Below are positions 12,542 to 51,890 of a stretch of DNA of 64,000 nt, in pieces. Position 1 is the stretch's first letter. The number at the start of each line of letters is the position of its first letter. A program made the translations under genes and the position numbers. Source of the DNA: an uncultured delta proteobacterium (GTDB taxonomy: Bacteria; Desulfobacterota; Desulfobacteria; Desulfobacterales; UBA2156); assembly GCA_963736855.1 (NCBI GenBank), contig CAVTQK010000015.1, positions 320,001 through 384,000 of the forward strand, written 5' to 3'. The notes beneath the pieces are model-generated. The model searched no databases, was not told the origin of the DNA, and saw only the letters and a list, made by a program, of their open reading frames with translations.

Positions 12542-13614
12542 TTGAGCGCGCATCGTTTTTCAACAAAGACCGAAAAGCCCCTTTCCTGGACCTTGATACT
12601 GGTCCTGTTCCTTTTTGCATGCGGGTTTGTGGTCCCGCCTGCCTGCACCGGTCAAATCTACCAATGGCAGGATGAGACTGGTGCGCGTCATTTTTCCGAC
12701 TGCCCTCCACTGGATGACCCGATCAAGGTTCTGGGAGATGAAAAAAGCACGAGTGAACCGTCTTCCGGATCTCCTTCTCTAAAGACTGAAAGCCATGCAG
12801 GGCGGGATGCTTCTCGTAAAGCAAAAGGCGTTTTCTGGAGGATCGAAAGATCCGGTTTGCGTCCCAGCTTTCTGATGGGGACCATCCATGTCGAAGATGA
12901 GCGGGTCTTGCAACTGCCACCGGCCGCCGAGGCGGCCTTCAACGCCGCCGACGCGCTGGTGCTGGAACTAATCCTCAACGAGGTCGCCGTTTTCAAGGCT
13001 GCCGCCGCCATGATCTATATGGACGGCACGGATCTAAAAGCGGTTCTCGGGGAAGATCTTTTTGCAAAAACCGCTGCGGCCATGAAAGACTATGGGCTGC
13101 CGGAAATCGCGCTGAGACGGATGAAGCCCTGGGCGGTCATGTCCGTCCTCACCGTGCCTAAGCCCAAAACCGGCAATTTCCTGGACCTTTCACTTTATCG
13201 CCGTGCGGTTCAATCCGGGAAAAGCGTTTACGGGCTTGAAACCGTGGAAGAGCAGGTCGGTGTCCTCGAATCTCTTCCCCTTAAAGACCAGATCGAAATC
13301 CTTCGGGAAACCCTCGATCAGTTCGAAGTTCTGCCCCGGGTGTTTTCCACCATGATCGAAATGTATCTTGCCGGCAATCTTGATGGACTTGCAGCGCTTT
13401 CGGAACGATTCATTCAGACTCAGGATCGGGGGTTGGTGAAGCGGTTCCTTTGGAGCGCCTCAACGATAACCGGAATCTGCGTATGGTGGAACGCCTGCAG
13501 ACCTACCTGGAACAGGGAAATGCGTTTGTGGCCGTCGGCGCCCTGCACCTTTCCGGAGAAAACGGCTTGCTGCGCCTGCTTGAAGCACGGGGTTACACGG
13601 TTCTTCCCGGATGA
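12542..13614 (+). CDS. DUF4124 + TraB/GumN-family protein, frameshifted near 13450
   Basis: Signal peptide, IYQWQDETGARHFSDCPP, SFLMGTIH, GLETVEEQ; the true C-terminus (RNLRMVE..AFVAVGALHLSGENGLLRLLEARGY) is in another frame ending at TGA 13614. Confidence 0.85.
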
Positions 13615-13632
13615 TTCAGGGCATATGGATAT

Positions 13633-13663
13633 AAAAAAAGCCGGTCGTTGGGACCGGCTTTTT
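13633..13663. terminator. Bidirectional rho-independent terminator
   Basis: A7-GCCGGTC-gttgg-GACCGGC-T5 between convergent genes. Confidence 0.85.
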
Positions 13664-13688
13664 GAATGCTTCTCTAAAACAGAGATCG

Positions 13689-15186
13689 TTAATTCACGAC
13701 CACAATCTTTCCGGCGTCCTGGCCGTCCGAATCGTTGTTCACCCGGTTTGCATCATCAAAGTCGAGGATCACCCCTAAATAATGTGTTCCGGGAGCGACA
13801 CTCTCAGGGATGCTCACCAGGGGCACCGTCACCTCCACGGAAGACAACGGAACAAAAGAGGCCACGAAGGTGTGTCGCTGGATCAGGGTATCCGAGGCAG
13901 AGATGTTTTCATTGTTCGATAGATAGACATTGGCATTCACGGTCCCGCTCCAGGCGGCCGACGACGTGTTGTGGGCCAGATAGGTCATTTCCATCTGTCG
14001 GCCGTCGGAAGCTCCGATCGCCTTGGCAGAGACATAAACCGGGGTCAGATCCACACTTGCCGGAGCCGAAGCGCCGGTCCAGCTTCTGATTGCGTTGAAC
14101 TGACCCTCATCCATCGTTGCACAGCCGGTAATTGTCTGGCGATCGCTGATGGATAAGATGGCATAAACAATCCTTGCACCAGTGTCGGTGTAATAAACAT
14201 ATTCGCTGCTGCCGCTGTGTCCGCCATAACTGGGCTTCAGAAAATACACCTGCTTGGGTAAATCGCTGTAATAGCCGTCATTATAGCCATACCGATAAAA
14301 CAGTGTGTTTCCGGTAAAACCATAGGCCGCCTCTGCAGGATATCCTCCGTTATTCCAAAGGGTACCTAGGTAAAAGTTTTGATCCGTGGTGTATCCGAAT
14401 CCATGCCACCCGGTTGCAGAGCCGATGGGCCGATCCAGGGCGATAACACCTATGTCCCAGTTGAAATCCCCATAGGTGATCCACCCCACGAAAGACAGAA
14501 ATGTTCCAGAAGCCGCCGATCCGTAAGGCGCCCAGTTATCCCGGTAGCCCGGGGTTACCACGATCTGACTGGCCCAGGCTCCCCCGCTTCCGTTATTAAC
14601 GCAATGACCTGCAGTAATGGCATAAGACGGCTGAATCAACGTCCCGGAGCATACATAGTTTCCATTCGGGAAGGTCATGAACAGCTTGGTCAGAACACTC
14701 CAGGGGTATTGCTCGGTATTTCCAACCGCTACAATGTCGGTAAATGATTCCAGGGAATTCTGCAATCGACTTTCGGCATCTGTACCGAGCGATTGATAAC
14801 GCCCGATGCCGGCGACGGTGTGCATCAGCGAGCCGACCGATCCGGAAACGGCTGCAGGATTCAAAACCGTTTCTTTACCGGTCTTGGGGTCGTAGGAAAC
14901 GATCTGCTTCAACAGTTCTGGGATCGACCCCTTGGGCGGCAGCGGGTTGTTTTGTCGGAAAGGGTATCGGCATGGGAAGGTAGCCGGAAAGGTCTTTAGG
15001 GAGGGGATTGACATTCCGCATCGCGCCTTCGTTTCGGGATGAGACTCCGGCAACCACCGTATCATCCACCACCGATGCCACCACCGGAACGACCCGAAGA
15101 ACCTCTGCGGCAGGCAGCGCATTTGGAAGAATCAGACCTGCCAGCAACAAGGGCAATAGACCCACAATACATGATTTCCGAACCAT
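13689..15186 (-). CDS. Secreted V8/glutamyl-endopeptidase-like serine protease with C-terminal Ig/CARDB-like domain, frameshifted near 14921
   Basis: Signal peptide in ORF 14875-15186; CSGTLI..TAGHCV, WDIGVI, GGHSGS triad motifs in ORF 13689-15122. Confidence 0.85.
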
Positions 15187-15990: not shown

Positions 15991-17333
15991 GTGAAGCCCA
16001 TCGTCGCCATCGTCGGGCGTCCCAACGTGGGAAAATCCACGTTGTTCAACCGGATCACCCATAAACGGGACGCCCTGGTGGATGGCATTCCCGGTGTCAC
16101 CCGGGACCGGCACTACGCGGATGCGGCGTACGACGAACGGGAATTCACTCTGGTCGATACCGGCGGTTTCACGGACGCGGATGCAGAGGGGTTTGCCGCC
16201 GACATCGTCGAACAGATCGCGGCGGCGGTGCAGGAAGCCGATGTGGTCATCCTGGTGCTGGATGGGAAAGGAGGCATATCCCCTTTTGACCATGACGTGG
16301 TGCGTTTCCTGCGACCGGCACAAAAACCGCTCCTTTTTGCCGTCAATAAGATCGACGGCCCTGACCAGGAAGACCGGCTCCACGATTTCCACGCCCTTGG
16401 AGCCGACACCCTTTTTCTCTTTCGGCCGAACATGGATACGGCATCCACGATTTCATGGACCGCCTCATCTTGGAGCTGGATCGGATCGAGACCAAGCCCG
16501 AACCGGATTTCCCGGAAGCACCCATCAAACTAGCCGTAGTGGGAAAACCCAACGTGGGAAAATCCTCACTCATCAACCGGCTTCTCGGAGAAGACCGTTT
16601 GCTCGTCAGAGACACGCCGGGAACCACGCGGGATGCCATCGACTCCTTGCTTCGAATAAATGAAAAAGCGTATTTGTTCATCGACACGGCCGGAATCCGC
16701 CGCAAGTCAAAAGTCGACGACAAGCTGGAAAAGTTTTCCGTGATCAAGGCGCTCAGAAGCCTTGAACGGTGCGATGTGGCCCTGGTGATGCTGGATGCCG
16801 AAGAAGGGGTGACCGATCAGGACATTCGGATCGCCGGATATGCCCATGAACGGGGATGCGCCATCCTTTTGCTTTTCAACAAATTCGACCGGGTTCAAAA
16901 GGACACCGGATCGGCCCGGAAACTGGTCCAACGCCTCCGTTCAGAGACCAAGTTTTTAGGTTTTGCACCGATTTTATCGGTTTCAGCCAAAACCGGTTTC
17001 CGGGTCAAACGGATCTTCGATATGGTCGATGAAATCTATCGGCAATATTCCCTCCGCACCGGAACCGGAACGGTCAATCAGATTTTCCAGGAAGCGGTTG
17101 AAAGAAAGGAACCGCCGCTTCATCAGGGCCGACGAATCCGGTTTTATTACGCCACCCAGGTATCCACCAAACCCCCCACATTCGTTGTTTTTGTCAACTA
17201 TCCCGAGGCGGTCCACTTCTCCTATAAGCGATATCTCATCAACCGGATCCGGGACAGGAGCCGGCTCGATAAAACCCCCATCCGCATCCTGTTCAGGAAG
17301 CGCACCGGAAAAAAACGCCGTGGATCTGTTTGA
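15991..17333 (+). CDS. der: Ribosome biogenesis GTPase Der, frameshifted near 16417
   Basis: Two G domains (GRPNVGKS, DTGG, NKID; GKPNVGKS, DTAG, NKFD) plus KH-like C-terminus; adding one base restores ..LSAEHGYG. Confidence 0.95.
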
Positions 17334-20583: not shown

Positions 20584-21018
20584 ATGACGGCGAAAAAAGA
20601 ACTGCAACTGGCATACGGGATAGGCATTGTCTTCCTGGTCATAGGGATCCTCAGTTATGCCGCCTTTTCCGCCAAACCGCCAGAGGAGCCGGTTCGAATC
20701 ATGTTCAAGGTCACGGCCGGCAAGGTCTTTTTCACCCATAAGACTCATACGGCTGAAGGCGGATATGGGATAGACTGTTTCACCTGCCACCATCACCCGG
20801 AAGGTGACGATGCGGCACTAAGGGCCTGTGGCGACTGCCACAGTCCGTCGGAAGAAAGAAAAACCGCATCCGCAAGCTGCCGGGAATGTCACGATGAAGG
20901 AGAACTGGACAGCGAGGAGACTCCGAAGCGTGCCGATGCCTTCCATGATCAGTGCACCGGATGTCATAAGGAAAAAGATGCGGGCCCCAAAGAATGCTCG
21001 GAATGCCATGTCCTGTAA
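20584..21018 (+). CDS. Membrane-anchored multiheme cytochrome c3 (5 CxxCH)
   Basis: N-terminal TM; CFTCH, CGDCH, CRECH, CTGCH, CSECH; VFFTHKTH. Confidence 0.92.
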   Translation: MTAKKELQLAYGIGIVFLVIGILSYAAFSAKPPEEPVRIMFKVTAGKVFFTHKTHTAEGGYGIDCFTCHHHPEGDDAALRACGDCHSPSEERKTASASCRECHDEGELDSEETPKRADAFHDQCTGCHKEKDAGPKECSECHVL

Positions 21019-21081
21019 GGACCGAATGGATTCAACAGCGATGCCCATGAAGACCGAAGGGAAGAACCGAAGGAGTCATCC

Positions 21082-22374
21082 ATGATCAAACGATCCTTTC
21101 TGGGGCTTTTGAAGCCGAAATTTGAAGTGCAGCGGATTCCTCTGGCGCCGGCTGAAATTCAGGAGATTCCGATTCCGAAGCAAGTCACACTCATGTTGAA
21201 AAAGCCGAAGGATCCGATACACGCAGCCGACACGGTGGCCCTTGCCAAAGGGGATCCGATCCATACCGGCCAAAAAATCAGCCTTTCTTCGGACAGCAGC
21301 ATCTATGTGATCTCATCGGTCACCGGAACGGTCAGCGATGTGTCGCCTTTCGCCGGGGATTTCGGAACCACCTACATCGCCATCTCCATCGATGTTACAA
21401 AAGAGGATGTTTTTGACGAGGCTTTTACTGACCGAGCCAAAAGCCCCGACCTGGCTTTTTCCAAAGAATACCTCCAAGCCTTGCCGGGAAGCCCGCCCTT
21501 TTCGGCTTTTTTCGATAAAGAAAAGCCGATACAAATCCTTTGCATCACAGGAATCGATGCGGATATTCTTTCTATGACCCGGCGGTACGTCCTGCTTCAT
21601 CAAATAAGCGAACTCAGAAAGGGGATCCAGGCGCTCAAAGGGATCACACAGGCCGATCGGATCGTCCTTGCTGTCCCTCAGAACACAGACTCGGAAATCG
21701 GCGACCTGGGCGCGGATGTCCGGGTGGTTGACGCCGGATACCCCGATACGCTCCCCCCACTGTTGGCACGGAAGCTTTTCGGGCAGACGGTGCCGGCTGA
21801 AAAGACCTGCGAAGACCTTGGAATCACATTTTTCAGCGCCGAAGCCGTGGCCGCTCTGGGAGGTGTTTTGGAGAGCGGGAGATGTCCGGTTAATAAAGTC
21901 CTGACCGTCACCGGAAAAGACGAAAGGCCAATCATGGTCTCGGCGCGGATCGGAACTCCGGTCAAAGAGATTTTCAGCGCGCTGGGAATTACCACGGGCA
22001 ACCTCGATCGTATCGTCTTTGGCGGTCCAATGACCGGGTCGGCCATCTATTCCGAGGACCAGCCGATCCTGCCCGACACCGACGCAATTCTGCTTCAGGA
22101 CAGGACCCGGATTCCTCCCGTCTCCCATTATCCTTGCATCAACTGCGGCGAGTGTATACGCATCTGTCCTGCTAAGATACCCGTCAATATGCTTGTGCGT
22201 TACCTCGAAGTCGGACGATACGACGAGGCTGCGGACCTGTATGATTTGCATTGCTGCATCGAGTGCGGCCTGTGCAGCTATGTCTGTGTTTCAAGGATGC
22301 CGATCTTCCAGTATATCCGCCTGGGGAAGCATGAACTGAAGCGGATGCATGCAGTGGGGGTCAATCATGCCTGA
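21082..22374 (+). CDS. rnfC: RnfC-like subunit (divergent)
   Basis: SSVTGTV, GGPMTG (SLBB), CINCGECIRICP and CIECGLCSYVC; operon context. Confidence 0.88.
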   Translation: MIKRSFLGLLKPKFEVQRIPLAPAEIQEIPIPKQVTLMLKKPKDPIHAADTVALAKGDPIHTGQKISLSSDSSIYVISSVTGTVSDVSPFAGDFGTTYIAISIDVTKEDVFDEAFTDRAKSPDLAFSKEYLQALPGSPPFSAFFDKEKPIQILCITGIDADILSMTRRYVLLHQISELRKGIQALKGITQADRIVLAVPQNTDSEIGDLGADVRVVDAGYPDTLPPLLARKLFGQTVPAEKTCEDLGITFFSAEAVAALGGVLESGRCPVNKVLTVTGKDERPIMVSARIGTPVKEIFSALGITTGNLDRIVFGGPMTGSAIYSEDQPILPDTDAILLQDRTRIPPVSHYPCINCGECIRICPAKIPVNMLVRYLEVGRYDEAADLYDLHCCIECGLCSYVCVSRMPIFQYIRLGKHELKRMHAVGVNHA

Positions 22375-23327
22375 TCAGAAAAAATTCATCGTTTCCCACG
22401 CCCCGTTCTGGCACGACGGAAGCAACATAACCACCCGGAGCTATCACACTATGATCGCTGCCCTGCCCGCGGCGATCTTTGGAGTGGTCCGTTACGGCAT
22501 TCCGGCCATCGGGGTCATCTCCCTGGCGGTTTCATCAGCAATCATCTGGGAATACCTGATAAACCGAATCACTTGCAGGCCGGTCACCATCGGAGACGGG
22601 AACGCGGCGCTCATCGGCCTCCTTCTGGCCATGCTGCTCCCAGCCACATCCCCCTGGTGGTTGGTTGTCATTGGAACGTTTGTGGCCATAGTCGTCGGCA
22701 AACAGATTTATGGGGGCATCGGGGGAAATCCGTTCAATCCCACGCTGGTGGCTATTGCCATTCTCTTATTGTCCTGGAAAGACCTTTTGGACTTCGATGA
22801 AGCCCTCCTGAATTATGAATTCAATTTTACCATGACTTACCCCCTTGCCGACCTTAAAGCATTTCGGCACTTCGGCTGTGGAGGGTTTCACCACGGGCCA
22901 GCTCTTGCTGGGAAATCAAATCGGAGGCATCGGCTCCACCTTCGGTCTAGGCCTGATCGCGGGGGGGATTTATCTGATCTTGCGAGGGTTTATTCGCTGG
23001 GAAATTTCCGCTTCTTTTCTGGCAGGAATCCTGGTCACCTCCCTGATTTTCAACCTTGTAAACGGAGCCCGTTACGCTGGCCCGGCCCTTCACCTTTTCT
23101 CCGGCTATACCCTGATCGGAGCGTTTTTCCTGGCCACGGAAGACTCTTCATCCCCGGTGAACTTTCTTCCGATGTTGCTCTTCGGGGCCGGAGGCGGAAT
23201 TCTGACTGTGCTTATTCGAAACATCGGCGTCCATATCGATGGTGTGATGTTCGCCCTGCTCATCATGAACATCGCCAATCCGCTTCTGGATAAAATCAGA
23301 CCCAAGGCACTTGGAAAGGTGAGCTGA
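22367..23327 (+). CDS. rnfD: RnfD subunit, frameshifted near 22858
   Basis: GKQIYGGIGGNPFNP in the first ORF; GAFFLATE..SSP, FALLIMN in the second. Confidence 0.9.
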
Positions 23328-23328
23328 C

Positions 23329-23922
23329 ATGCGCGAGATGATCAAAATGGTGGTTGTGCTGACCGTCCTGTGTGCGTTTTCCGGCGGTCTTCTCGCCGCA
23401 CTTCGCGACGGAACCAAAGAACGGATCGAAATCCAGCAACTGGAATTCGTCAAGGGACCGGCCATTCGCAAAATCCTCGAAGGGGCCTCCAACGACCCGA
23501 TCAAGGACCGGTTTAAAATAAAGGCCGGGGAAACCGAAAGGACCTTCTTCGTCGGCATGTTCGACGGAAAACCCGCTACCGTGGCCTATGAAGCATCCGG
23601 AAAGGGGTTCGGAGGGGAAATCGGAATGATGGTCGGCGTAAACCTTGAGGATGACAAGATTGTGGGGGTAGGGGTCACCACTCACAGCGAAACCCCCGGG
23701 ATCGGGGCCAGGGCCCAGACCGACCCAAAGTTCGCCAGCCAATTCAAAGGCCTGCTGCTTACCGAGGAATTGAAGATCAAAGGAGACGGCGGAAAGATCG
23801 ACGCCATCTCCGGGGCCACCGTCACCTCAAAAGGGGTGACTGCCGGCGTGAACGATGCCGGTAAGTTCTATAAAGAAATCAAACCTCAACTTGCCGAAAA
23901 AGTAAAATCCTTCCAAAAGTAG
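23329..23922 (+). CDS. rnfG: RnfG subunit
   Basis: GFGGEI, HSETPGIG, DAISGATVTS covalent-FMN motif. Confidence 0.93.
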   Translation: MREMIKMVVVLTVLCAFSGGLLAALRDGTKERIEIQQLEFVKGPAIRKILEGASNDPIKDRFKIKAGETERTFFVGMFDGKPATVAYEASGKGFGGEIGMMVGVNLEDDKIVGVGVTTHSETPGIGARAQTDPKFASQFKGLLLTEELKIKGDGGKIDAISGATVTSKGVTAGVNDAGKFYKEIKPQLAEKVKSFQK

Positions 23923-23932
23923 GGAGTCATTC

Positions 23933-24526
23933 ATGGCAAAAACACTAACTCAGGAGTTCACCAAGGGCCTTTGGGCCGAGATTCCTCCGTTTCGGCTTGT
24001 GCTCGGATTGTGTCCGACACTGGCCGTGACGAAAACCGTGGAAAACGCCATCGGAATGGGGATTGCCGTCATCTTCGTACTGACCGGCTCCAATATACTG
24101 GTTGCAGCCCTCCGTAAAATTATCCCGAATAAGGTAAGAATCGCCTGTTTTATTATCGTTATTGCCACCTTTGTCATCGTCGTCGAGCTCCTGATGCAGG
24201 CATATACTTATTCTCTTTTCTTGAAGCTCGGCATTTTTATTCCACTCATTGTTGTTAACTGCATTCCTCTCGGAAGGGCCGAGGCCTTTGCCTATAAAAA
24301 TGGTATTGCCGCATCTACGGCGGACGGACTCGGACTCGGTATAGGATATGCCCTCTCGCTTACCGTCCTGTCCGCGGTACGGGAAGTTTTCGGTAACGGC
24401 ACCTTTTTGGGAACGACGGTTTTCGGCTCGTCTTTTCAGCCGTTCAAATTCATGGTGGAAGCCCCGGGGGCATTTGTCTGTCTCGGATTGATGCTTTGCA
24501 TTATGAACGCCATGGGAAAGAAATAG
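23933..24526 (+). CDS. rnfE: RnfE subunit
   Basis: LGLCPTLAV, IPLIVVNC, GRAEAFA, PGAF. Confidence 0.95.
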   Translation: MAKTLTQEFTKGLWAEIPPFRLVLGLCPTLAVTKTVENAIGMGIAVIFVLTGSNILVAALRKIIPNKVRIACFIIVIATFVIVVELLMQAYTYSLFLKLGIFIPLIVVNCIPLGRAEAFAYKNGIAASTADGLGLGIGYALSLTVLSAVREVFGNGTFLGTTVFGSSFQPFKFMVEAPGAFVCLGLMLCIMNAMGKK

Positions 24527-24536
24527 GAGAAGGTTC

Positions 24537-25112
24537 ATGGGCGATTACATCCAGATGATCATTGGTTTTATTCTGGTCAACAACATTCTGCTCATGCAGT
24601 ACCTGGGAAACTGCCCGTTTCTCGGGACATCCAAACGGATGGAAACGGCCGTAGGAATGGCGATGGCGGTGGTTTTTGTTCTGGTCATGGCGGGCGCCAT
24701 CACCTGGGCCACCGAAATGTATCTGCTTAAGCCACTGGGCCTTGAATATCTGCGGACCATGTCCTTTATCGTGGTGATCGCGTCGCTGGTCCAGTTTGTG
24801 GAGATGTTTTTGAAAAAGAGCGTCCCGGCACTCTACACGGGACTTGGAATCTATTTGCCTCTGATTACGACCAACTGTGCGGTATTGGGCGTTTGCCTGA
24901 TCAACATCAAAGAAGAATACAATTTTATGCAGACCATCGTTTCCTCGTTTGGTTACAGTTCCGGCTTCGGATTTGCCCTGATCCTCTTTGCGGGTGTCCG
25001 GGAACGCATACTTCTGGGCCGGGTTCCGAAGGCCCTTCAGGATACTTCAATCGGATTGATCACGGCTGGAATGCTCTCTCTGGCGTTCTTCGGTTTCAAG
25101 GGGATGATATAG
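24537..25112 (+). CDS. rnfA: RnfA subunit
   Basis: NNILL, LGNCPFLG, LPLITTNCAVLG. Confidence 0.95.
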   Translation: MGDYIQMIIGFILVNNILLMQYLGNCPFLGTSKRMETAVGMAMAVVFVLVMAGAITWATEMYLLKPLGLEYLRTMSFIVVIASLVQFVEMFLKKSVPALYTGLGIYLPLITTNCAVLGVCLINIKEEYNFMQTIVSSFGYSSGFGFALILFAGVRERILLGRVPKALQDTSIGLITAGMLSLAFFGFKGMI

Positions 25113-25121
25113 GAGGAAGGT

Positions 25122-27188
25122 ATGACTGAAGCGCTTGCCTTTATGCTGGGCCTCGGTGTGATCTGTGGATCCATCCTGAGTATTGCCTCAAAAATATTCT
25201 ATGTCTATGAAGATCCGAGAAAGGCGGAAGTCGAGGGGTTTTTAGCCGGAGCGAACTGTGGAGGATGTGGCTTTGCAGGGTGTGCCGCCGCCGCCGAAGC
25301 GGTCATAACCGGAGAGGCGCCCTCCAGTGTCTGTATCGTGGGGGGGCCGGAATCCGCAGCCAACGTGGCCCGGGTCATGGGCGTGGATGCCGGAACCGCC
25401 GAACCCAAGCTCTCTTCCAGTAAATGCGATGGCGGAAACCGTGCGGAAGATAGTTATTTTTACGTGGGAGTCGACTCCTGCCAGGCCGTATCCGCCTTTT
25501 TCGGAGGGAAGAGGAAATGCGACGTCGGATGTCTTGGATATGGAGACTGTGTACGGGCCTGTCTTTTTCACGCAATCAAAATCGGCCCGGAAGGGTTTCC
25601 CGTCATCGACGAAAGAAAATGCGTGGGCTGCGGAGCGTGCGAGCGTGCCTGTCCCAAACAGGTCCTTTCCGTAACCACGATCAGAGATCGGTTGTTGCAC
25701 TTCAACCGGGAGGACGATTGCCTGGCCCCCTGTCAGCAGACCTGCCCGGCCCAGATCGACATTCCTCTCTACATTGCCCAGATCAAAAATGGGGATTACG
25801 AAGGGGCGGTAAGGACGATTCGGGATCGAAACCCGTTGCTTCTTTCCTGCGGCAGGGTCTGTCCACATCCCTGTGAAAATTTTTGCCGTCGGGGAATCGA
25901 AGATGAAGCGGTCTCCATCAACCAGCTGAAACGCTTTGTGGCGGATCGGGAAATGAATTCCGGCAGCCGGATCTCCATCCCCTGTGCCCCGCCCACCGGC
26001 AAGAAAGTGGCGGTTATCGGCGGCGGTCCGGCCGGGTTGACCTGCGCTTATTTCTTGAAGAGGCTGGGTCACAACGTCAGCATTTACGAGGCCATGCCCA
26101 AGCCGGGGGGTATGATCCGTTACGGAATTCCCGAATACCGGCTCCCCAAAAAAGTTCTTGACTGGGAGATCGAAGGAATCCTCAATCTCGGAATCAGGGT
26201 CCATACCAATGTCAAACTGGGAATCGATTTTGATATCCCCTCTCTGGTCGCCGGAGACTATGACGCCATCTTCCTGGGCGTCGGCGCATGGAAAGACTAC
26301 TCGCTCAAGATTGAAGGTGAAGACCTCTCCGGGTGCCATACCGGAATCGATTTTCTGTCTCGTATCGCTTCCGGGGAATCTGTCCCCATTGGAAAGAGGG
26401 TGGCGGTGGTCGGCGGCGGCAACACGGCCATCGACTGTGTCCGCACCCTGATAAGACTCGGCGCCGAGGAGGTCTCCATCCTTTACCGACGGACACGAAA
26501 AGAGATGCCGGCCAATGTGGTGGAAATTGAAGCAGCGGAACACGAAGGGGTCAAATTCATCTTCCTTGCCGCGCCGGTCAGAGTTCTGGGGGATGATCAG
26601 GGAAGGGTTGCCCACCTGGAATACCTCAAGATGGAGCTTGGTGAACCGGATGCCAGTGGAAGGCGCCGGCCGGTCCCGATAAAAGGATCCGAAACTCTTC
26701 TTCCGATCGACATGGTAATTTCCGCCATCGGTCAAGAGCCCGATATGACCTTCAAGGGAGAAGGAAAACGAGCCCAATCGCTGAAAACCACACGATGGAA
26801 TACCATCGCGGTCAATCCTGAAACCTTGCAAACGAATATACCGTATATTTTTGCGGCAGGCGATGCTGCCACCGGACCTTCACTTGTCGTGGACGCCATC
26901 GGGGGGGGAAGACAGGCGGCAAGATCGATCCACCTCTATTTAAGCGGCAAAGCGGTCACCCCACCGGAGAAGTCACTTTTCAAACGCCACATTCCAGGCA
27001 CCCTTTTCGATTCCGTTCCCGGAATCCGCAAAATTCCGAGGGTGCCGATGCCCGAGTTGCCTGTCGGGGAACGGGTCTATTCCTTCGTTGAAGTGGATCA
27101 GGTCATCTCCGAACAAGACGCCAAAAAGGAATCCTCCCGTTGTCTGAATTGCGGTAGAATATGCTACGACAAGGATGTAGCGGCATAA
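25122..27188 (+). CDS. rnfB: RnfB fused to a GltD/NfnB-like Fe-S flavoprotein
   Basis: GANCGGCGFAGC, CDVGCLGYGDC, CVGCGAC, then APCQQTCP, GRVCPHPCE..C, GGGPAG, RYGIPEYRLP, GGGNTAID, YRRT. Confidence 0.92.
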   Translation: MTEALAFMLGLGVICGSILSIASKIFYVYEDPRKAEVEGFLAGANCGGCGFAGCAAAAEAVITGEAPSSVCIVGGPESAANVARVMGVDAGTAEPKLSSSKCDGGNRAEDSYFYVGVDSCQAVSAFFGGKRKCDVGCLGYGDCVRACLFHAIKIGPEGFPVIDERKCVGCGACERACPKQVLSVTTIRDRLLHFNREDDCLAPCQQTCPAQIDIPLYIAQIKNGDYEGAVRTIRDRNPLLLSCGRVCPHPCENFCRRGIEDEAVSINQLKRFVADREMNSGSRISIPCAPPTGKKVAVIGGGPAGLTCAYFLKRLGHNVSIYEAMPKPGGMIRYGIPEYRLPKKVLDWEIEGILNLGIRVHTNVKLGIDFDIPSLVAGDYDAIFLGVGAWKDYSLKIEGEDLSGCHTGIDFLSRIASGESVPIGKRVAVVGGGNTAIDCVRTLIRLGAEEVSILYRRTRKEMPANVVEIEAAEHEGVKFIFLAAPVRVLGDDQGRVAHLEYLKMELGEPDASGRRRPVPIKGSETLLPIDMVISAIGQEPDMTFKGEGKRAQSLKTTRWNTIAVNPETLQTNIPYIFAAGDAATGPSLVVDAIGGGRQAARSIHLYLSGKAVTPPEKSLFKRHIPGTLFDSVPGIRKIPRVPMPELPVGERVYSFVEVDQVISEQDAKKESSRCLNCGRICYDKDVAA

Positions 27189-29198: not shown

Positions 29199-31211
29199 TT
29201 AAAGTAGGAACGGCACCATCAGCAAGGCCACGACGTTGAGGATCTTGATCATCGGGTTCACAGCGGGACCGGCGGTGTCCTTGTACGGATCGCCTACGGT
29301 GTCGCCGGTGACGGCCGCCTTGTGGGCATCGCTTCCCTTACCGCCCAGATGACCGTCCTCGATGTATTTTTTCGCATTGTCCCAGGCCGCACCGCCCGTG
29401 GTCATGGATATGGCCACAAACAGCCCGGTCACGATGCTACCGATCAGAAGACCTCCCAATGCCACCTTGCCCAACAGGAAGCCCACCACCAACGGAGCCG
29501 CGACGGGAAGAAGAGCGGGAATCATCATCTCTTTGAGGGCAAACTTAGTGACGATATCCACGCATGTCCCGTAGTCGGGTTTGGCTGTGCCTTCCATGAT
29601 CCCAGGAATTTCCCGGAACTGTCGCCGAACCTCTTCGACGACCGCGCCGCCGGCTTTTCCTACCGCTTTCATGGCGATGGAGGCAAACAGGTAAGGCAAT
29701 AATCCGCCGATGAAGAGACCGATGATGACGTTCACATCTCCGAGATCGAACCGGATGGCACCGCCCTTGCCTCCTTTGACGGTGAACTCATAGACATAGC
29801 AGGCAAAAAGAACCAGCGCCGCCAACCCTGCCGAACCGATGGCGTACCCCTTCGTGACGGCTTTGGTGGTGTTTCCGACCGCATCCAAAGGATCGGTGAC
29901 GGCCCGGACACTCTCGTCCATGTTGGCCATTTCCGCGATACCCCCGGCATTGTCGGTGATCGGGCCGTAAGCATCGATGGCAATGACCATGCCGGTCATG
30001 GACAGCATGGCCATGGCCGCAGTGGCAATTCCATAGATTCCGGCAAAATGGAATGCCGTATAGATACCGACGCAGATCGCCAAAACGGGCAGGGCAGGGG
30101 ATTGCATGCTTAGGGCCAAGCCTGCAATGATATTGGTGGCATGCCCGGTGGTGGATGCCTCGGCAACCGCTTTAACCGGGGCATATTTGCCGGTATAGAA
30201 TTCCGTGATGATCACGATGATCACGGTGAGCAGAATACCGACCATGGATGAATAGAAAATGGCCATGGGTGTGATGTTTTCAAGCCCGACCATGAGTTTT
30301 CTGGACGCAAAATAAAACCCGATGATAGCTATAATGGCGGAGCCGAACATCCCTTTATACAGGGCGCCCATGATGTATTGGCTTGCACCGAGACGGACGA
30401 AAAAGACCCCGATGACCGAGGCGATGATGGAAATGGCACCGAGCACCAAGGGAAATTCAGTGGCAATGGCAATCTTGGGGAACATGAGGTGGCCCATCAG
30501 CATGGCAGCCACAGCCGTGACGGCATAGGTTTCGAACAGGTCCGCGGCCATGCCTGCACAATCCCCAACGTTGTCTCCCACGTTGTCGGCGATAACCGCC
30601 GGGTTTCTGGGGTCATCCTCGGGAATCCCGGCCTCGACTTTCCCCACCAGGTCCGCGCCCACATCCGCGCCCTTGGTGAAGATACCGCCGCCTAATCGCG
30701 CGAAAATGGAAATGAGGCTTCCGCCGAAGCCCAATGCCACCAGCGCGACGACATCACGGGTAAAGTGGTAATAACCAGAGACGGCGGTCAGGGCAAGGCC
30801 CGCCACGATCATGCCGGTGACTGATCCTCCTTTGAAAGCCAGGGACAATCCGGCAGCGAGCCCTTTCTTGGCGGCTTCAGCAACCCGCACGTTGGCAATG
30901 ACGGAAACCCGCATCCCGATGTATCCGGCCGCATAGGATGCGACGGCCCCAATTAAAAATCCGACGGCCGTTTTGGCGCCCATGAATACCAAAATGATGG
31001 CGAAAATGACGATACCGGCAATCGCCACGCTTTTCAGCTGCCGGTTCAGATAGGCGATGGCGCCTTCTTTAATTGCGGCAGAGATCTCCTGCATCCGCGC
31101 GTCTCCGGCAGGTGATCCTTTGACGATACTGGCGACGATCATCGCATAAGCCACACCCACAAGACCCACAAACGCGCAAACCAACGGTATGTTCTTGACT
31201 ACATAATCCAT
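29199..31211 (-). CDS. hppA: Membrane-bound pyrophosphatase (K+-independent H+-PPase type)
   Basis: [35 protein letters not shown]. Confidence 0.95.
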
Positions 31212-39234: not shown

Positions 39235-41205
39235 TTAGGCCACTTCAAGCTTCTGTCGATCGGCCATATCCATAAGGACCCGGTCCCTGGCTTTGTCAAT
39301 GCCCAGGGCTTTTCGCTTTTTATCGATGTGTTCGATCATCATCCGGGCCATTTCATACGGATCCGGCGTGAACCCCCACTTACCCAGGCCCTGTTTTTCC
39401 AGCCCGTTAAAAAGCAGATCGTAAAATTTTGTATTTTCAACGATGGGGAACGTTACACCAAAAACGGTGAAGACCCCGGAGGCGACAAAATATTGACCGA
39501 TACTGATCGCTTTTTCACTCATCCACTCCGGAGCCGCCCCGGCCACCGGCAGATCAGCGATGCTGTTTCCCAACCCGCCTGTCTTTACCATTTCTGCGCA
39601 CGCGATCAGGATCCGGCTGTTATCCACACAGGAGCCGATACCGAGTACCGGAGGCATTCCGACGGTTTCGCAGACTTCACGAAGGCCGGGGCCGGCCAGG
39701 ACCGCCGACTCGGGCGTCGTGAGACCTGCCTTGGCTAAAGCGATCTGGGAACAACCGGTCTGAACCACCAGGACATCGTTTTTAATCAATTCTTTGACCA
39801 GTTCCACATGCACATAATCTTGTTTCACCCGAGGGTTGGTGCATCCCACCACGCCGGCCACACCGCGGATCCGTCCATTGATGATATTGTCGTTCAAGGG
39901 TGTGTAGGAAGACCGGAACGTTCCGCCCAGCATGTACTGAATATATTCATGAGAAAAACCGTGTACACCGATATCGCGTCTCTTGGGAATTTCAATCTTG
40001 GCCTTTCGGTTTTTGAACCGGGTTATGGCCTTGATGACTACTTCATCGGTGCATCTCTTGGGGTCATGTTCGTGAAATTCGATGTGAGTCGCCCCTTCGA
40101 TATGGCATCTCGGGTTCGTGGTAATCAGGTAGGTCCCGTAACAGTCGGCCACTTTTGCAAGCCCTTGTTTAATGCACTGAACGTCCACACACATGACATC
40201 CACGGCCCCGGTAATCAGCACCGCCTCGGTGGACATGAAATTGCCGGCGTGCGGAATACCGTGCCTCACCAAAACCTCCGCTCCGGAACAGCACATTCCG
40301 ACAAGGTTGATCCCTTTGGCCCCGGCCTTTTTTGCCTCTTCGAGCAGGGATGGTTCCCGGACCGATTCGATCATCGACTCGAATAAATTGGGTTCATGAC
40401 CATGGATAATGACGTTGACATGATCCTCCTTGAGAACACCCATATTGACTTCGATGGAAACCGGTGAAGGAGTACCGAAAAGGATGTCCGAAATCTCGGT
40501 TGCCACCATTGAACCGCCCCAACCGTCCGCTAGTGCGGTTCGACTGCACTGTTTGGTCATGTTCTCATAGTGCTGGTCGACCCCCATGTGGGTTCGGTGC
40601 ATGATTTCCATGATCTCTCTCATGGCACCCCTTGGGACGATGCCGAGTTTTCTCCAGGTTTCGAGAGTTTTTTCCGGCACCCGATTGACAAATGGAATCT
40701 CTCCTTCAACTTGAGTATAGGTTCGCTCCAACTCTTTATATAGATCCTTTGCGATATCAATAACTTCCCGCCCTTCGGTTTCGATGCCGACCGACTTGGC
40801 CACTTCCTCAAGTTTAACGGTGTCTTTAATTTTGTAATCTTGAATTTTTCCATTGACGACGTCACGGAAAAGGTCGAGCATGCTCATCCCGTGATCCGTA
40901 TGAGCTGCACATCCCGCAGCCACCATCCGGGCGAAATTCCTCGACATGATGGTATCGATGGTTGCCCCGCAGACTCCGACTTTGCTGTAGGGATCCTTGG
41001 CATTCAGCCTGCAGGGTCCCATGGAACAATGCTTACAGCAGGCAGAATCCGCCCCGATGGGGCAAGCCTTCATGCTTGCCGCCCTGTGAAATGCGGTTTC
41101 AACGCCGTCTCTTTCCGCTTTATCCAGCATTTGGGCAGTGGCTTCACATGTGGTAACATCCCTGATGTTAATTAATTCTTTTTTTTCCTTTTTTTCTTTC
41201 TCCAT
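39235..41205 (-). CDS. cooS: Anaerobic Ni,Fe carbon monoxide dehydrogenase catalytic subunit
   Basis: CCKHCSMGPC..GVCG, HGHEP, GMCC, DVQC, VVGC, TGC, GSCVDNSR, SEKA. Confidence 0.96.
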   Translation of the reverse strand: MEKEKKEKKELINIRDVTTCEATAQMLDKAERDGVETAFHRAASMKACPIGADSACCKHCSMGPCRLNAKDPYSKVGVCGATIDTIMSRNFARMVAAGCAAHTDHGMSMLDLFRDVVNGKIQDYKIKDTVKLEEVAKSVGIETEGREVIDIAKDLYKELERTYTQVEGEIPFVNRVPEKTLETWRKLGIVPRGAMREIMEIMHRTHMGVDQHYENMTKQCSRTALADGWGGSMVATEISDILFGTPSPVSIEVNMGVLKEDHVNVIIHGHEPNLFESMIESVREPSLLEEAKKAGAKGINLVGMCCSGAEVLVRHGIPHAGNFMSTEAVLITGAVDVMCVDVQCIKQGLAKVADCYGTYLITTNPRCHIEGATHIEFHEHDPKRCTDEVVIKAITRFKNRKAKIEIPKRRDIGVHGFSHEYIQYMLGGTFRSSYTPLNDNIINGRIRGVAGVVGCTNPRVKQDYVHVELVKELIKNDVLVVQTGCSQIALAKAGLTTPESAVLAGPGLREVCETVGMPPVLGIGSCVDNSRILIACAEMVKTGGLGNSIADLPVAGAAPEWMSEKAISIGQYFVASGVFTVFGVTFPIVENTKFYDLLFNGLEKQGLGKWGFTPDPYEMARMMIEHIDKKRKALGIDKARDRVLMDMADRQKLEVA

Positions 41206-45847: not shown

Positions 45848-47074
45848 CTACCCCCCAAAGTCATCGAAGGCAATCATCTCCTTTTCTACCCCGGCGTTGT
45901 CTAGCATTTCCTGGACCGCCTTGAGCATCGGAGGAGGTCCGCATAAATAAAATTCGATTTCCGTGGGATCCGGGTGGTTTTTCAAATATTGCTCGTATGC
46001 CGCCTGGTGGATATAGCCCGTCAAGCCCTCCCAGCGATCCTCGGGTTCGGGATCAGAAAGCGAAACGACGAATTTGAAATTCGAGTAATGCTTCTCCAAC
46101 TCCCGGAATTCTTCTTCGTAGAACAGCTCCTTTTTTGAACGGGCGCCGTACCAGAATGACATCTTGCGCTCTGTCCTCAACGTGAGAAGCTGATGAAAAA
46201 TGTGGGCCCTCAGCGGCGCCATACCGGCCCCGCCGCCGATGAAACACATCTCCCGCCCGGTGTCTTTGATAAAAAAATCTCCGTAGGGTCCGCTGAGAGT
46301 CACTTGATCTCCGGGTTTCAACGTAAAAAGATAGGAAGATGCGATTCCGGGGGGAATTTCCAATTCCCCGGGTGGCGGCGTGGCGATTCGGATGGTAAAT
46401 ATCAACTCCGGCTCCTCCGGGGTGTTGGCCAGAGAATAGGCGCGAAAAATCGGTTCTTCTGCTTTTGCCTTAAGCCCCCAGAAATCGAAACGATCCCACA
46501 CCTTTTTATAAGTTTCCCCTACATGGATCTCCCGGTAGGACCGTTCATATTCGGGAATATCGATCTGAACATAGGCCCCGGTTTTGAAATCCATCCTTTC
46601 GTTTCCTTCAAGTTTCAGCCTCAGTTCCTTGATGAAAGAAGCCAAATTCTCGTTGGAAACCACGATGGCGCTGTATTTCTTGATGTTGAAGATCTCCTCG
46701 GGGATGCGGATCTTCATATCTTCTTTGACTTTGAGCTGGCATGCCAGACGGATGCCGTTGTTTTTTTCATCCCGGCTCAGATGAGCCAGTTCAGTGGGAA
46801 GGATATCCCTTCCTCCGGCTTCAATCCGGCATTTGCACAAACCACAACTTCCTTTGCCGCCGCAGGCCGACGATAGCAAAACGCCGTTTTGGGTCAATGC
46901 GGAAAGGAGTGTTGCGCCCGTGGGGGTTTGAATACTTTTAGCCGGATCCTCGTTGATGACAATGGTCCGGTCCCCCTTGATGACGACTTTTGCCTCCACC
47001 AATAGAAGGGCGATGACCATCAATCCGATGACGCCGGCAAAAACCGCCAGTGCTATGACCCAGGTCTCCAACAC
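45848..47074 (-). CDS. nqrF: Na+-translocating NADH:quinone reductase subunit F
   Basis: SACGGKGSCGLC, RLACQ, RAYS, GGGAGMAP, YLCGPP, DDFGG. Confidence 0.95.
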   Translation of the reverse strand: MLETWVIALAVFAGVIGLMVIALLLVEAKVVIKGDRTIVINEDPAKSIQTPTGATLLSALTQNGVLLSSACGGKGSCGLCKCRIEAGGRDILPTELAHLSRDEKNNGIRLACQLKVKEDMKIRIPEEIFNIKKYSAIVVSNENLASFIKELRLKLEGNERMDFKTGAYVQIDIPEYERSYREIHVGETYKKVWDRFDFWGLKAKAEEPIFRAYSLANTPEEPELIFTIRIATPPPGELEIPPGIASSYLFTLKPGDQVTLSGPYGDFFIKDTGREMCFIGGGAGMAPLRAHIFHQLLTLRTERKMSFWYGARSKKELFYEEEFRELEKHYSNFKFVVSLSDPEPEDRWEGLTGYIHQAAYEQYLKNHPDPTEIEFYLCGPPPMLKAVQEMLDNAGVEKEMIAFDDFGG

Positions 47075-47089
47075 GGCTCACCTTTTCCG

Positions 47090-47698
47090 CTACAATGAAA
47101 TTCCCGCAAACAACATGAAACCGATGGCCATCAAGCCGGTAGTGATCATGTTGATGGCAAAACCCTGCAATCCCACCGGCACATCGGCGTAACGAAGTTT
47201 CTTCTGAATGGCGGACATGGCAATGATGGCCAGAGCCCAGCCAACCCCCGAGCTGGCGCCGTAGACAACCGTCTCGGTGAAAGAATATTGGCGCTCCACC
47301 ATGAACAGTGCAACACCCAGGATGGCGCAGTTGACGGTGATCAGGGGGAGGAAAACCCCCAAGGATGCATACAGGGCCGGGGAATACCGATCGATGACCA
47401 TTTCCAGAGCCTGCACGATGATGGCAATGGTGGCGATAAAAAGAACCAGCTTCAGGTAGCTCAAATTCACCTCGGGAAGCCCTGCCCAGGCGAGGGCACC
47501 CGGCGCCAGCAGATGGTTATATATGAGCCAGTTGACCGGTGTGGTGACAGTCAGCACAAAAATTACCGCAACGCCAAGCCCGGCGGAGGTCTTCATGTTC
47601 TTGGAAATTGCCAGAAAGGAGCACATCCCTAAAAAATAAGCCAGAAGGATGTTGCCCACAAAAATCGAATTGACGGCGATGCTGATCAGATTTTCCAT
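47090..47698 (-). CDS. nqrE: Nqr subunit E
   Basis: [19 protein letters not shown]. Confidence 0.95.
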
Positions 47699-47737
47699 GA
47701 ATGGCAAAACCCTGTTTTTTCCGATTTTCGGAAGCGG

Positions 47738-48385
47738 TTATCTTCCCTTTTTCTTTGAAAGCAACGTATGCTCCAGCCAGACGAACAGCCCGATAATGAT
47801 GAAAGCCCCGGGGGCAAGCCGCATCAATCCATTGTTCATGTACCCTGCCTCATAGAAATAAGCGGGGATGACCGGATAGCCGAACAGCGCCCCGGCTCCC
47901 AGTAATTCCCTCAAGAATGCGACACCGACCAGCACCGAGCCGTATCCGATGCCGTTTGCCATACCGTCCACAAAGGACTTCCAAGGCGGGTTGGAGAGGG
48001 CATACCCCTCCGCGCGACCCAGCACGATGCAATTGGTGATAATCAACCCGACGAAAACCGACAGCTGGCGGCTGACATCGTACATGAAGGCTTTCAGGAA
48101 TTCATCGGCCAGAATCACCAGAGTCGCGATCACGCTGACCTCCACCATGATTCGGATGTTTCGGGGAATTGTGCGCCGCATCAGGGAAATGACGAGGCTG
48201 GAAAATGCCACCACCAACGTCAGCGAGATGCTCATGACCAGAGCGGTCTTCATTTGCACGGTTATGGCCAGAGTCGAGCAGATCCCCAGAATCTGCTTGG
48301 AAATGGGGTTGGCTTCCCACAAGGCGCGGACAATGGCCTTGAAGGATTGACTCCTGCGGAAAAGCGGTATGAGGTTTCGGGTCAT
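47738..48385 (-). CDS. nqrD: Nqr subunit D
   Basis: QILGICSTLA, VGLIITNCIVLGRAE; start may be 48415. Confidence 0.95.
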   Translation of the reverse strand: MTRNLIPLFRRSQSFKAIVRALWEANPISKQILGICSTLAITVQMKTALVMSISLTLVVAFSSLVISLMRRTIPRNIRIMVEVSVIATLVILADEFLKAFMYDVSRQLSVFVGLIITNCIVLGRAEGYALSNPPWKSFVDGMANGIGYGSVLVGVAFLRELLGAGALFGYPVIPAYFYEAGYMNNGLMRLAPGAFIIIGLFVWLEHTLLSKKKGR

Positions 48386-48434
48386 CCGATCACTTCGATT
48401 CTTGCTTCGGTTCATCTTGTTTCTGCTTCTGTCT

Positions 48435-49142
48435 TCATTTCACACTTGATATCATATGCTTTCTGAAACGGATCGACACCGGTTCATAATTTTCCAAAAC
48501 CTGGCGGACTCCGGCTGTCAGATATCGCCCTGTTAATGTGGCGCCGCTGATTCCGTCCACGTAGTGGGAGAGCATCTCATCCGAAACAAAATTTTTAGCG
48601 GCCCCCCGGGTGATGCTGACGGAGACAAATTCACCTTCTTTGTTGATGATCTTTTTCCCGATCCAATTTTTCTGAAACCATTCCTTTTCGATCTCTCCGC
48701 CCAGGCCGGGAGTCTCAGCGTGCTTGAAGACAGTGAATCCGGCGATGGTAACCCCATCGTTTTCGAGGGCCAGATATCCGTAGATCTTTCCCCACAACCC
48801 CCTCGACTCCACAGGGACTGCATAGTTTCGTATCTTTTGGCCGTCAAGCCGGACGTAAAGGGCCAAATCGGCCTCCTTCCGCCTTTGAGTATCCACCAAG
48901 TCTCCTGCCGGGGTCACCCAAAATGTTCGAATATTTTGGTCATAGATCCTTTCGATATCGCTTTCAGAGAGGATTTTCCACGTTTCAATCAAACCGACGG
49001 CTTTTAAAATGTTGCGTTTTTTTTCTATGCGCATGTTGTTTTGCTGCAGGTCCTGCAACCCTGTGGAGGCTGCCGTGAGCAATGTGCTGCAAACCAAACA
49101 AAGGAGACCGGCAAAAAGGAGAGAACGAAGGCGCTCAGACAT
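48435..49142 (-). CDS. nqrC: Nqr subunit C
   Basis: GLWGKIYGYLAL, HAETPGLG, DGISGATLT. Confidence 0.95.
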   Translation of the reverse strand: MSERLRSLLFAGLLCLVCSTLLTAASTGLQDLQQNNMRIEKKRNILKAVGLIETWKILSESDIERIYDQNIRTFWVTPAGDLVDTQRRKEADLALYVRLDGQKIRNYAVPVESRGLWGKIYGYLALENDGVTIAGFTVFKHAETPGLGGEIEKEWFQKNWIGKKIINKEGEFVSVSITRGAAKNFVSDEMLSHYVDGISGATLTGRYLTAGVRQVLENYEPVSIRFRKHMISSVK

Positions 49143-51659: not shown

Positions 51660-51890
51660 GTGTTTTGATCCTGATAAGTACCATTTGATCAATTGAAGGT
51701 GATCTTTTACCATTCTCCCGCTCGATTTACAACCAGCCACATGCGAGCAACTAATTTCAGTTCAAGACTTTCGGCCTTGACTTTTAAAGTCTTTGCCATC
51801 ATAGTAATTTTTGAATGTGAAAATGTTCCCTATTTTAATTGCCCGTTTCAATTCATCTTTTTTCCTTATTTTATCAAGAAGGAGCAATAA

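Follow-up and report, generated by a model that had tools for sequence, protein, structure and literature searches.

The window considered here is a stretch of 64,000 nucleotides from contig CAVTQK010000015.1 (assembly GCA_963736855.1) of an uncultured delta proteobacterium. Seven co-oriented genes at 20584-27188 on the forward strand form an Rnf operon, in which a cytochrome gene is followed by rnfC, D, G, E, A and B. An initial annotation had described a possibly rewired Rnf complex with four deviations: a leading pentaheme cytochrome, an RnfC without recognisable flavin mononucleotide (FMN) and NADH motifs, an RnfD without the covalent-FMN motif, and an RnfB fused to an NADP-type flavoprotein. 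All four are real, as seen from motifs, alignments and the recurrence of the RnfC and RnfD states in 98 of 129 operons. As an object the operon is not new; it is a member of the described Rnf2 variant, for which the architecture has been published and a different mode of action already proposed. New relative to the searchable literature are the clade-wide loss of the RnfD FMN site that accompanies the RnfC loss, and a predicted dock of the cytochrome on RnfD. The features of the operon are as follows.

20584..21018, forward strand: membrane-anchored pentaheme class III cytochrome c (the Rnf2 cytochrome, in a DhcA-like position), from motifs and Pfam.
21082..22374, forward strand: RnfC with degenerate FMN/NADH loops and both [4Fe-4S] motifs kept, from alignment and model.
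22135-22170 and 22255-22287, forward strand: the [4Fe-4S] motifs of RnfC, from sequence motifs.
22367..23327, forward strand: RnfD with the FMN-binding Thr changed to Tyr, split by a probable assembly frameshift, from alignment, profile and model.
22838..22840, forward strand: Tyr codon replacing that of the flavinylated Thr (TYPL versus canonical ATPL), from alignment.
22848..22851, forward strand: one extra base shifting the rnfD frame, likely an assembly error.
23329..23922, forward strand: RnfG of family RnfG_DVU2794 (NF045876), flavinylation motif SGAT intact at 23809-23820.
23933..24526, forward strand: RnfE with both cluster cysteines and equivalents of Acetobacterium woodii R67, L103, V106 and E115.
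24537..25112, forward strand: RnfA with both cluster cysteines and equivalents of Y105, L108 and T111.
25122..25691, forward strand: RnfB part with a membrane anchor, a B8-type cluster motif (25257-25283) and one ferredoxin domain.
25692..27188, forward strand: fused NfnA/StnC/GltD-type domain of RnfB, from solved-structure matches and motifs.

RnfC aligns over its full length with the solved RnfC chains 8ahx, 7zc6 and 9eri. Read from these alignments, the canonical loops GIVGLGGAxFPT, NxxECEPYL and YPQG have become ALPGSPPF, TGIDADILS and YPDT, and the FMN/NADH site of a canonical ferredoxin (Fd):NAD+ Rnf is absent. Scores for Complex1_51K and SLBB fall under the Pfam cut-off. The whole fold is nonetheless retained in an AlphaFold model (predicted local distance difference test, pLDDT, 88; template modelling score, TM, 0.75-0.80 to solved RnfC).

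The change in RnfD is not confined to the Thr. PMC9588780 (this paper, PMC12901251, PMC5109826, PMC11887813, PMC4023990, PMC11889175, PMC11334425 and the main text of PMC4215793 are cited here from excerpts) names Arg130 and Glu185, in Clostridium tetanomorphum numbering, as FMN contacts of RnfD, and both are lost in the window along with the Thr. Of the riboflavin ligands the Asn is kept and the Asp is replaced by Glu. A Thr-to-Tyr change in Vibrio cholerae NqrB removes the FMN and interrupts electron flow (PMC12901251). The extra base that splits rnfD, missed in the initial annotation, sits 3' of the Tyr codon, and it is absent in four of four independent runs and in three of three relatives aligned. 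It is therefore taken as, most likely, an assembly error; rnfD is also intact in the relative L001, whose RnfC is 90% identical, and in relatives of the same genus.

Operons were scored at loci L001-L017 and L048-L167 and in the window. Left out of the counts were L079 and L081 (duplicates of L002 and L008), L077 (partial), the short loci L018-L047 and operons without C or D sequence, and L170 was scored apart from the main counts. In 98 of the 129 operons that have both C and D, both motif sets are absent (C-D- operons); 27 keep both and four lack those of RnfC only, and the combination of intact C motifs with a degenerate D occurs in none. Because the same states recur in 98 operons, the deviations in the window are not due to chance. 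The Thr, Arg and Glu are invariant in 32 of 32 canonical RnfD sequences. Among 101 degenerate RnfD, Arg130 is found in none and Glu185 in four, and the FMN-Thr column most commonly holds Tyr (51), with E, A, P, D and others also seen. Flavinylation of Tyr or of a shifted Thr was ruled out as an explanation, as Thr or Ser occurs in only 9 of the 101 and never with the AT motif. No motif is missing from canonical Rnf1 paralogues of the same order.

In a tree of RnfE plus RnfA (50 rows, rooted on Nqr), all 33 C-D- rows form one clade with support 100/100, and the C-D- operons thus count as one event rather than 98. The window operon groups, again at 100/100, with named Desulfobacteraceae and Desulfonema limicola metagenome-assembled genome (MAG) operons of the same build. 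The initial annotation had raised the question of whether the C/D losses co-occur with the RnfB fusion. Among 112 operons with RnfB, all 60 fused ones are C-D-, which bears this out in one direction, while 22 of 82 C-D- operons have a short RnfB, which rules out a strict coupling of the two. Short-RnfB rows nest within fused ones in the tree; an approximately unbiased (AU) test rejecting one fused clade is not relied on, because two rows whose RnfB is unknown were grouped with the others. Judged from sequence, the C/D loss is the primary change, and the B fusion and the cytochrome are variable add-ons. One relative, L012, has a canonical rnfC-rnfD pair (L012:3-2344, reverse strand) head to head with its Rnf2 operon. 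A separate group of Rnf operons (L126, L127, L128 and L131, and also L137, where RnfD is cut off) has the gene order G-E-A-B-C-D. The first four have degenerate RnfC FMN/NADH loops, an intact RnfD Thr and no adjoining cytochrome, and QrcD is absent from the four genomes checked. This group is an independent loss of the NAD site.

The remaining subunits have kept their cofactor motifs. As had been noted from the start, the SGAT motif of RnfG and the four cysteines of RnfA/E are intact and could be located. The window RnfG scores 261 bits against NF045876 (cut-off 205), and the RnfG flavin motif is intact in 98 of 101 cases. Equivalents of R67, L103, V106, E115, L108 and T111 are conserved in 92 of 92 clade operons, with variation at the Tyr/Phe position. 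Three scored cysteines (RnfE C108, RnfA C25 and C113) are likewise kept in 92 of 92, the fourth being covered by a separate motif scoring outside this pump-residue count. In A. woodii the ion passes through RnfA/E and RnfD only conducts electrons (PMC11889175).

RnfB has 688 amino acids in total (25122-27188), with Pyr_redox_2 spanning 294-595. The best solved relatives of its fused domain are the NfnA/StnC-type chains 9bov_A, 8oh5_C and 9n5u_A (E 1e-128 or better), and its motifs comprise two Fe-S motifs, GGGPAG for flavin adenine dinucleotide (FAD), GGGNTA and YRRT for NADP, and a C-terminal RCLNC. Lys270 occupies the ligand position of NfnA K165, and Lys is found there in 57 of 62 fused domains. 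A bifurcating NfnL would ligate its FAD-proximal cluster with Glu and would pair with NfnS; the window has Lys270 in that place and the operon has no nfnS. With the NfnA-type Lys instead of the NfnL Glu, the fused domain is probably a plain NADPH-oxidising flavin domain and not a bifurcating one. Fused domains without the YRR motif are found at L070, L092, L094, L099-L101, L105-L107, L110, L115, L151, L156 and L163; they mostly also lack GGGNT and keep the FAD motif.

The cytochrome (144 amino acids, 15.7 kDa, isoelectric point, pI, 5.6) has five CxxCH motifs and five additional His, with a single hydrophobic helix starting at residue 9, and matches Cytochrom_CIII (PF02085) above cut-off (E 1.6e-11). 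A multiheme gene lies upstream of rnfC in 65 of 82 C-D- operons versus 0 of 30 D-intact operons; these counts were corrected by hand for a decaheme gene at L157 missed by the script and for L013 and L121, the two operons whose upstream DNA is not covered. All 17 genomes that were picked for having no operon cytochrome contain a c3 cytochrome elsewhere. Some genomes carry several C-D- Rnf operons (G392, with L149, L150 and L151; G393, with L155 and L156), and these vary in having a decaheme or pentaheme cytochrome and intact or degenerate NADP motifs.

The host genome (3.9 Mb, 100% complete), whose nearest named relatives are Desulfobacterales MAGs, encodes a sulfate-reducer gene set with DsrAB, QrcABCD, TmcA, a 16-heme cytochrome and [NiFe] hydrogenase, and its ApbE gene is located outside the Rnf operon. 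A tblastn search of this genome for a second Rnf returned only the Rnf2 operon and Nqr, which rules out a canonical second copy. In 51 genomes, which were hand-chosen and are related rather than independent, QrcD was found in 27 of 31 C-D- genomes versus 0 of 20 D-intact genomes, and c3 cytochromes in 31 of 31 versus 9 of 20. QrcD was detected with NCBIfam, as PF14589 matched nowhere, controls included.

A complex of RnfD, RnfG, the cytochrome and four hemes was modelled using sequences from the relative L004, which has a four-heme orthologue. The model scored 0.73, versus 0.00 for the best of three controls, and the score mark is reached by 116 of 157 solved pairs and 2 of 215 mismatched pairs. 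Contact agreement between runs was at least 79% and partner pLDDT at least 80. In the predicted dock the anchor of the cytochrome packs against helix 44-63 of RnfD and its heme domain rests on the linker 142-166, next to Y158 (L004 model), which places the cytochrome close by the lost FMN site. We know of no solved RnfD-cytochrome pair. In canonical Rnf the periplasmic linker of RnfD is the docking place of RnfG (PMC9588780).

On balance we lean towards reading the Rnf2 complex as an oxidoreductase that pumps ions and works reversibly between NADP(H) in the cytoplasm and the pool of cytochrome c3 in the periplasm. NADPH would bind the FAD domain fused to RnfB, which its motifs suggest to be non-bifurcating and NfnA-type, and single electrons would pass along the clusters of RnfB to that of RnfA/E, and there Na+ or H+ would cross together with the electron, a coupling modelled on A. 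woodii. The FMN of RnfG would swing to RnfD as in canonical Rnf, and there it would meet the docked cytochrome instead of FMN-D and hand the electron to a heme. In sulfate reduction, onward transfer would run from cytochrome c3 through Qrc to menaquinone. With H2 as donor, electrons would flow inward and NADPH would be made (ferredoxin in short-RnfB relatives). RnfD would serve as a scaffold and RnfC as a stabilising cap, and soluble c3 may be able to stand in for the operon cytochrome, which would be an optional adaptor. NADPH has a potential of about -320 to -370 mV and the c3 hemes about -200 to -350 mV; being near equilibrium, the NADP(H)-c3 reaction should be reversible. We infer the NADP(H) specificity, the structural role of C and D and the electron direction.

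The initial annotation had suggested electron flow between the periplasmic cytochrome pool and NADP(H) or ferredoxin by way of RnfG, RnfA/E and RnfB, with the C/D arm bypassed. That link to the periplasmic pool is the best-supported reading, through the predicted cytochrome-RnfD interface, the co-occurrence and co-fitness with Qrc and the pump residues, and the motif losses in RnfC and RnfD support its claim of a reaction unlike that of textbook Rnf. A bypass of the C/D arm is plausible for its role as an electron wire. The arm does not, however, seem to be unused, as mutants in rnfC and rnfD are sick and the cytochrome is predicted to dock on RnfD.

The mutants in question are those of Desulfovibrio (Oleidesulfovibrio) alaskensis. 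Locus L170 matches 12 of 12 rnf primers published for strain G20 (PMC4841214 Table 1); the primers were absent from the first 167 loci, and L168 was dropped with one of 12 matched. At L170 the cytochrome is decaheme, RnfC lacks the three loops, RnfD reads MLINPL at the Thr site, RnfG is intact, RnfB has 289 amino acids and ApbE is encoded as well. All 20 other loci sampled from its order are also C-D-. From L170 and the C/D losses at these loci, the D. alaskensis-type Rnf, the only one of its kind studied genetically, is probably not an Fd:NAD+ enzyme. Price et al. model it as Fd:NADH (PMC4215793). Both Rnf and Qrc are required on H2, on formate and on three donors oxidised in the cytoplasm, namely fumarate, malate and ethanol (PMC4215793). 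Over 49 experiments in the supplement of that paper, rnfC fitness correlates with that of two qrc genes at r = 0.86 and 0.85, and with floxD at r = 0.30 and dhcA at r = -0.13.

A wider proposal, which we put forward tentatively as a possibility, is that the main Rnf of sulfate-reducing Desulfobacterota, that of Desulfovibrio included, is not an Fd:NAD+ oxidoreductase. It would instead be a one-way-across-the-membrane ion pump that joins cytoplasmic NADP(H) or ferredoxin to the periplasmic c3 pool, with an RnfD-docked cytochrome replacing the lost flavin. As such it would be the missing route from cytoplasmic donors to c3, Qrc and menaquinone, and from periplasmic H2 or formate to ferredoxin and NADP+.

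Several observations weigh against the reading as an NADP(H)-c3 oxidoreductase. Degenerate RnfD retains the riboflavin-site acid in 98 of 101 and the Asn in 69 of 101, from which part of the D-C wire may still be under selection, and both RnfC [4Fe-4S] motifs are retained in 98 of 98 clade operons. The complex model shows no contact between the cytochrome and RnfG, which is no evidence either way; it was built from a relative, with its own alignments and ligands unlike the calibration of the tool, and it scores 0.00 with RnfD replaced. Fifteen C-D- operons with upstream DNA covered have no adjoining cytochrome gene. The YRR motif is lost in 14 of 62 fused domains, which may use a partner other than NADP(H). 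As the clade has a single origin, its association with Qrc and c3 counts only once, in a lineage of sulfate reducers. A common dependence on energy from the ion gradient could also account for the co-fitness of rnfC and qrc, and the needs of Rnf and Qrc mutants diverge on pyruvate fermentation and on lactate/sulfite. A dhcA mutant (one insertion strain) is healthy on Rnf-requiring donors, and the authors place DhcA outside Rnf electron transport (PMC4215793). The rnfC and rnfD mutants of D. alaskensis are about as sick as those in rnfG, A and B; an rnfD mutant was milder than rnfA on formate and H2 (PMC4841214), yet the pooled fitness data show no clear gap.

Some of these points would be met by a U-shaped wire kept with fewer flavins, an explanation we regard as unlikely though worth serious attention. 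NADPH or ferredoxin would enter at RnfB, the FMN of RnfG or a heme would insert at the place of FMN-D and reduce the RnfD riboflavin, and the [4Fe-4S] pair of RnfC would hand single electrons to a cytoplasmic partner other than NAD+, leaving the cytochrome as a side branch. This comes close to a remark in PMC5109826 that the RnfC partner other than NAD must be identified. The retained RnfC clusters and riboflavin-site acid speak for it, as does the requirement for rnfC and rnfD and not for dhcA, and in published models of Nqr/Rnf-like two-subunit complexes without the RnfD Thr, the flavin of RnfG reaches the flavin site in the membrane (PMC11334425). However, the bulky Tyr that stands at the Thr position in about half of degenerate RnfD is the change that blocks flow in NqrB, and Asn124 is replaced in 32 of 101, the D. 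alaskensis-type operon included; N123A kills A. woodii Rnf (PMC11889175). Retention of clusters need not mean a wire, as the NqrA encoded in the window keeps both of its cluster motifs too. Outside the Fe-S domain, clade RnfC conserves only scattered Gly and Pro and a handful of others, and no surface for a partner stands out; the need for Qrc on cytoplasmic donors would be left unexplained.

An Nqr-like NADPH (or Fd):menaquinone oxidoreductase, with the fused domain acting as NqrF, RnfC as NqrA and RnfD reducing menaquinone, appears improbable. The entry of NAD(P)H at the B side and the absence of FMN from the C subunit do parallel Nqr, NqrA is the next-best match of the RnfC model after RnfC, and the RnfD model matches NqrB at Z 31-35. 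NqrB, however, requires FMN for quinone reduction (PMC12901251) and the NqrB of the window keeps its FMN motif; a full Nqr is already present in the genome at 45848-51740; and Qrc should be needless on malate, fumarate and ethanol, where D. alaskensis needs it. More doubtful still is the view, taken for Desulfovibrio and in the majority of genome papers, that the complex is an ordinary Fd:NAD+ Rnf, here one whose motifs have diverged. The six subunits are present with intact folds, the D. alaskensis complex contributes to the proton motive force (PMC4841214), and there is the Fd:NADH model of Price et al.; against this, all three RnfC FMN/NADH loops are changed and the canonically invariant RnfD residues are lost, while the Rnf1 paralogues of the same order retain all motifs. 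A private operon decaying in the host, as the frameshift at 22848-22851 and the lost motifs might suggest, can be dismissed as highly improbable, for the extra base is missing in all four runs, two further genes of the window seem to carry frameshifts as well, the motifs have been lost across the clade, and proteomes of six strains show Rnf2 to be abundant and constitutive (PMC11887813).

Those two genes lie upstream of the operon. The gene at 15991-17333 is split over two frames and the gene at 12542-14089 runs into unrelated sequence; from their motifs we take them to be der (EngA), a GTPase gene, and a TraB/GumN-like gene, and their state suggests more indel errors in the assembly. Downstream, 2 kb from the Rnf operon, lies a gene (29199-31211, reverse strand) presumably for a membrane-bound pyrophosphatase-like protein. 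A gene at 39235-41205 (reverse strand) scores above cut-off as an anaerobic CO dehydrogenase catalytic subunit. The Nqr genes are adjoined by a citrate synthase II-like gene at 52189-53367 (forward strand) and are arranged as follows.

45848-51740, reverse strand: complete nqrABCDEF operon, the true Nqr of the host genome.

Its NqrA keeps two CxxCxxCxxxCP motifs, and NqrB (SGATPL) and NqrC both keep their flavinylation motifs.

Rnf2 belongs to the core genome of Desulfobacteraceae, complete-oxidising sulfate reducers that drive much of the carbon turnover of the seabed (PMC11887813). Models of Desulfovibrio energy metabolism assume Fd:NAD+ activity, and two puzzles are noted there: Qrc is needed on cytoplasmic donors, and in the model formate reaches ferredoxin only via H2 (PMC4215793). 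If the complex does connect NADP(H) or ferredoxin to the c3 pool, both puzzles would have one answer and electron-flow maps of sulfate reducers would need redrawing.

Among known systems, canonical Rnf (A. woodii 9eri, C. tetanomorphum 7zc6, Azotobacter vinelandii 8ahx) shares with the window the six subunits and their folds, the B8 cluster motif, the A/E cysteines and pump residues and the RnfG flavin site. The window differs in lacking the RnfC FMN/NADH motifs and the RnfD FMN-Thr, Arg and Glu, in the FAD/NADP domain carried by RnfB and in the extra cytochrome. The operon is not a Na+-NQR, as its subunits score as Rnf and an NqrF subunit and flavinylated NqrB are lacking. NfnA/StnC of the Nfn-Bfu transhydrogenases have the Lys ligand position and the FAD and NADP motifs in common with the fused domain, which would however feed the RnfB clusters and not a BfuB flavobicluster; PMC12018979 mentions such domains in Rnf, with no analysis. 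The Rnf-MmcA system of Methanosarcina acetivorans likewise has a cytochrome gene ahead of rnfCDGEAB and no NAD(P) reduction at RnfC; it does not use NAD(P), and transfer from RnfG to the cytochrome has been proposed (PMC4023990). It differs in being archaeal, in having methanophenazine as the final carrier and in its short RnfB.

The gene set of Rnf2 as published is the same as that of the window operon, with no essential difference. PMC5109826 describes a 'D. toluolica Tol2-type' Rnf2 with an NAD-binding RnfB of about 700 amino acids, an RnfC without the NADH-binding part, whose non-NAD partner is still to be identified, and a 15 kDa acidic cytochrome; with reference to Wöhlbrand 2016 it mentions a different mode of action that has yet to be tested. 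The window agrees with this description in its 688 amino acid RnfB, its RnfC without NADH function and its small acidic cytochrome (15 kDa and pI 5.3 in D. multivorans, versus 15.7 kDa and pI 5.6 here). In the excerpts of PMC5109826 and PMC11887813 no RnfD FMN loss is mentioned, the fused domain is called NAD-binding where that of the window is NADP-type and NfnA-like, and RnfC domains are given as missing where the window keeps the fold and has lost the motifs. The RnfD FMN loss in sulfate reducers, its extent and a cytochrome-RnfD contact were not found in the searchable literature; Wöhlbrand 2016 and the Rnf2 supplement of PMC11887813 may state them. The closest genetically studied system is dhcA-rnfCDGEAB-apbE of D. 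alaskensis and D. vulgaris, which has the same order, RnfG family NF045876 and C/D motif losses and, judged by its nearest relatives in the tree, belongs to the same clade as the window. It differs in its decaheme rather than pentaheme cytochrome, in the short RnfB of the D. alaskensis-type locus (289 amino acids) and in the presence of apbE in the operon. Rnf of Desulfovibrionaceae has been classed as ordinary Rnf1 (PMC11887813), yet it shares the C/D losses, which makes the question testable in a tractable strain.

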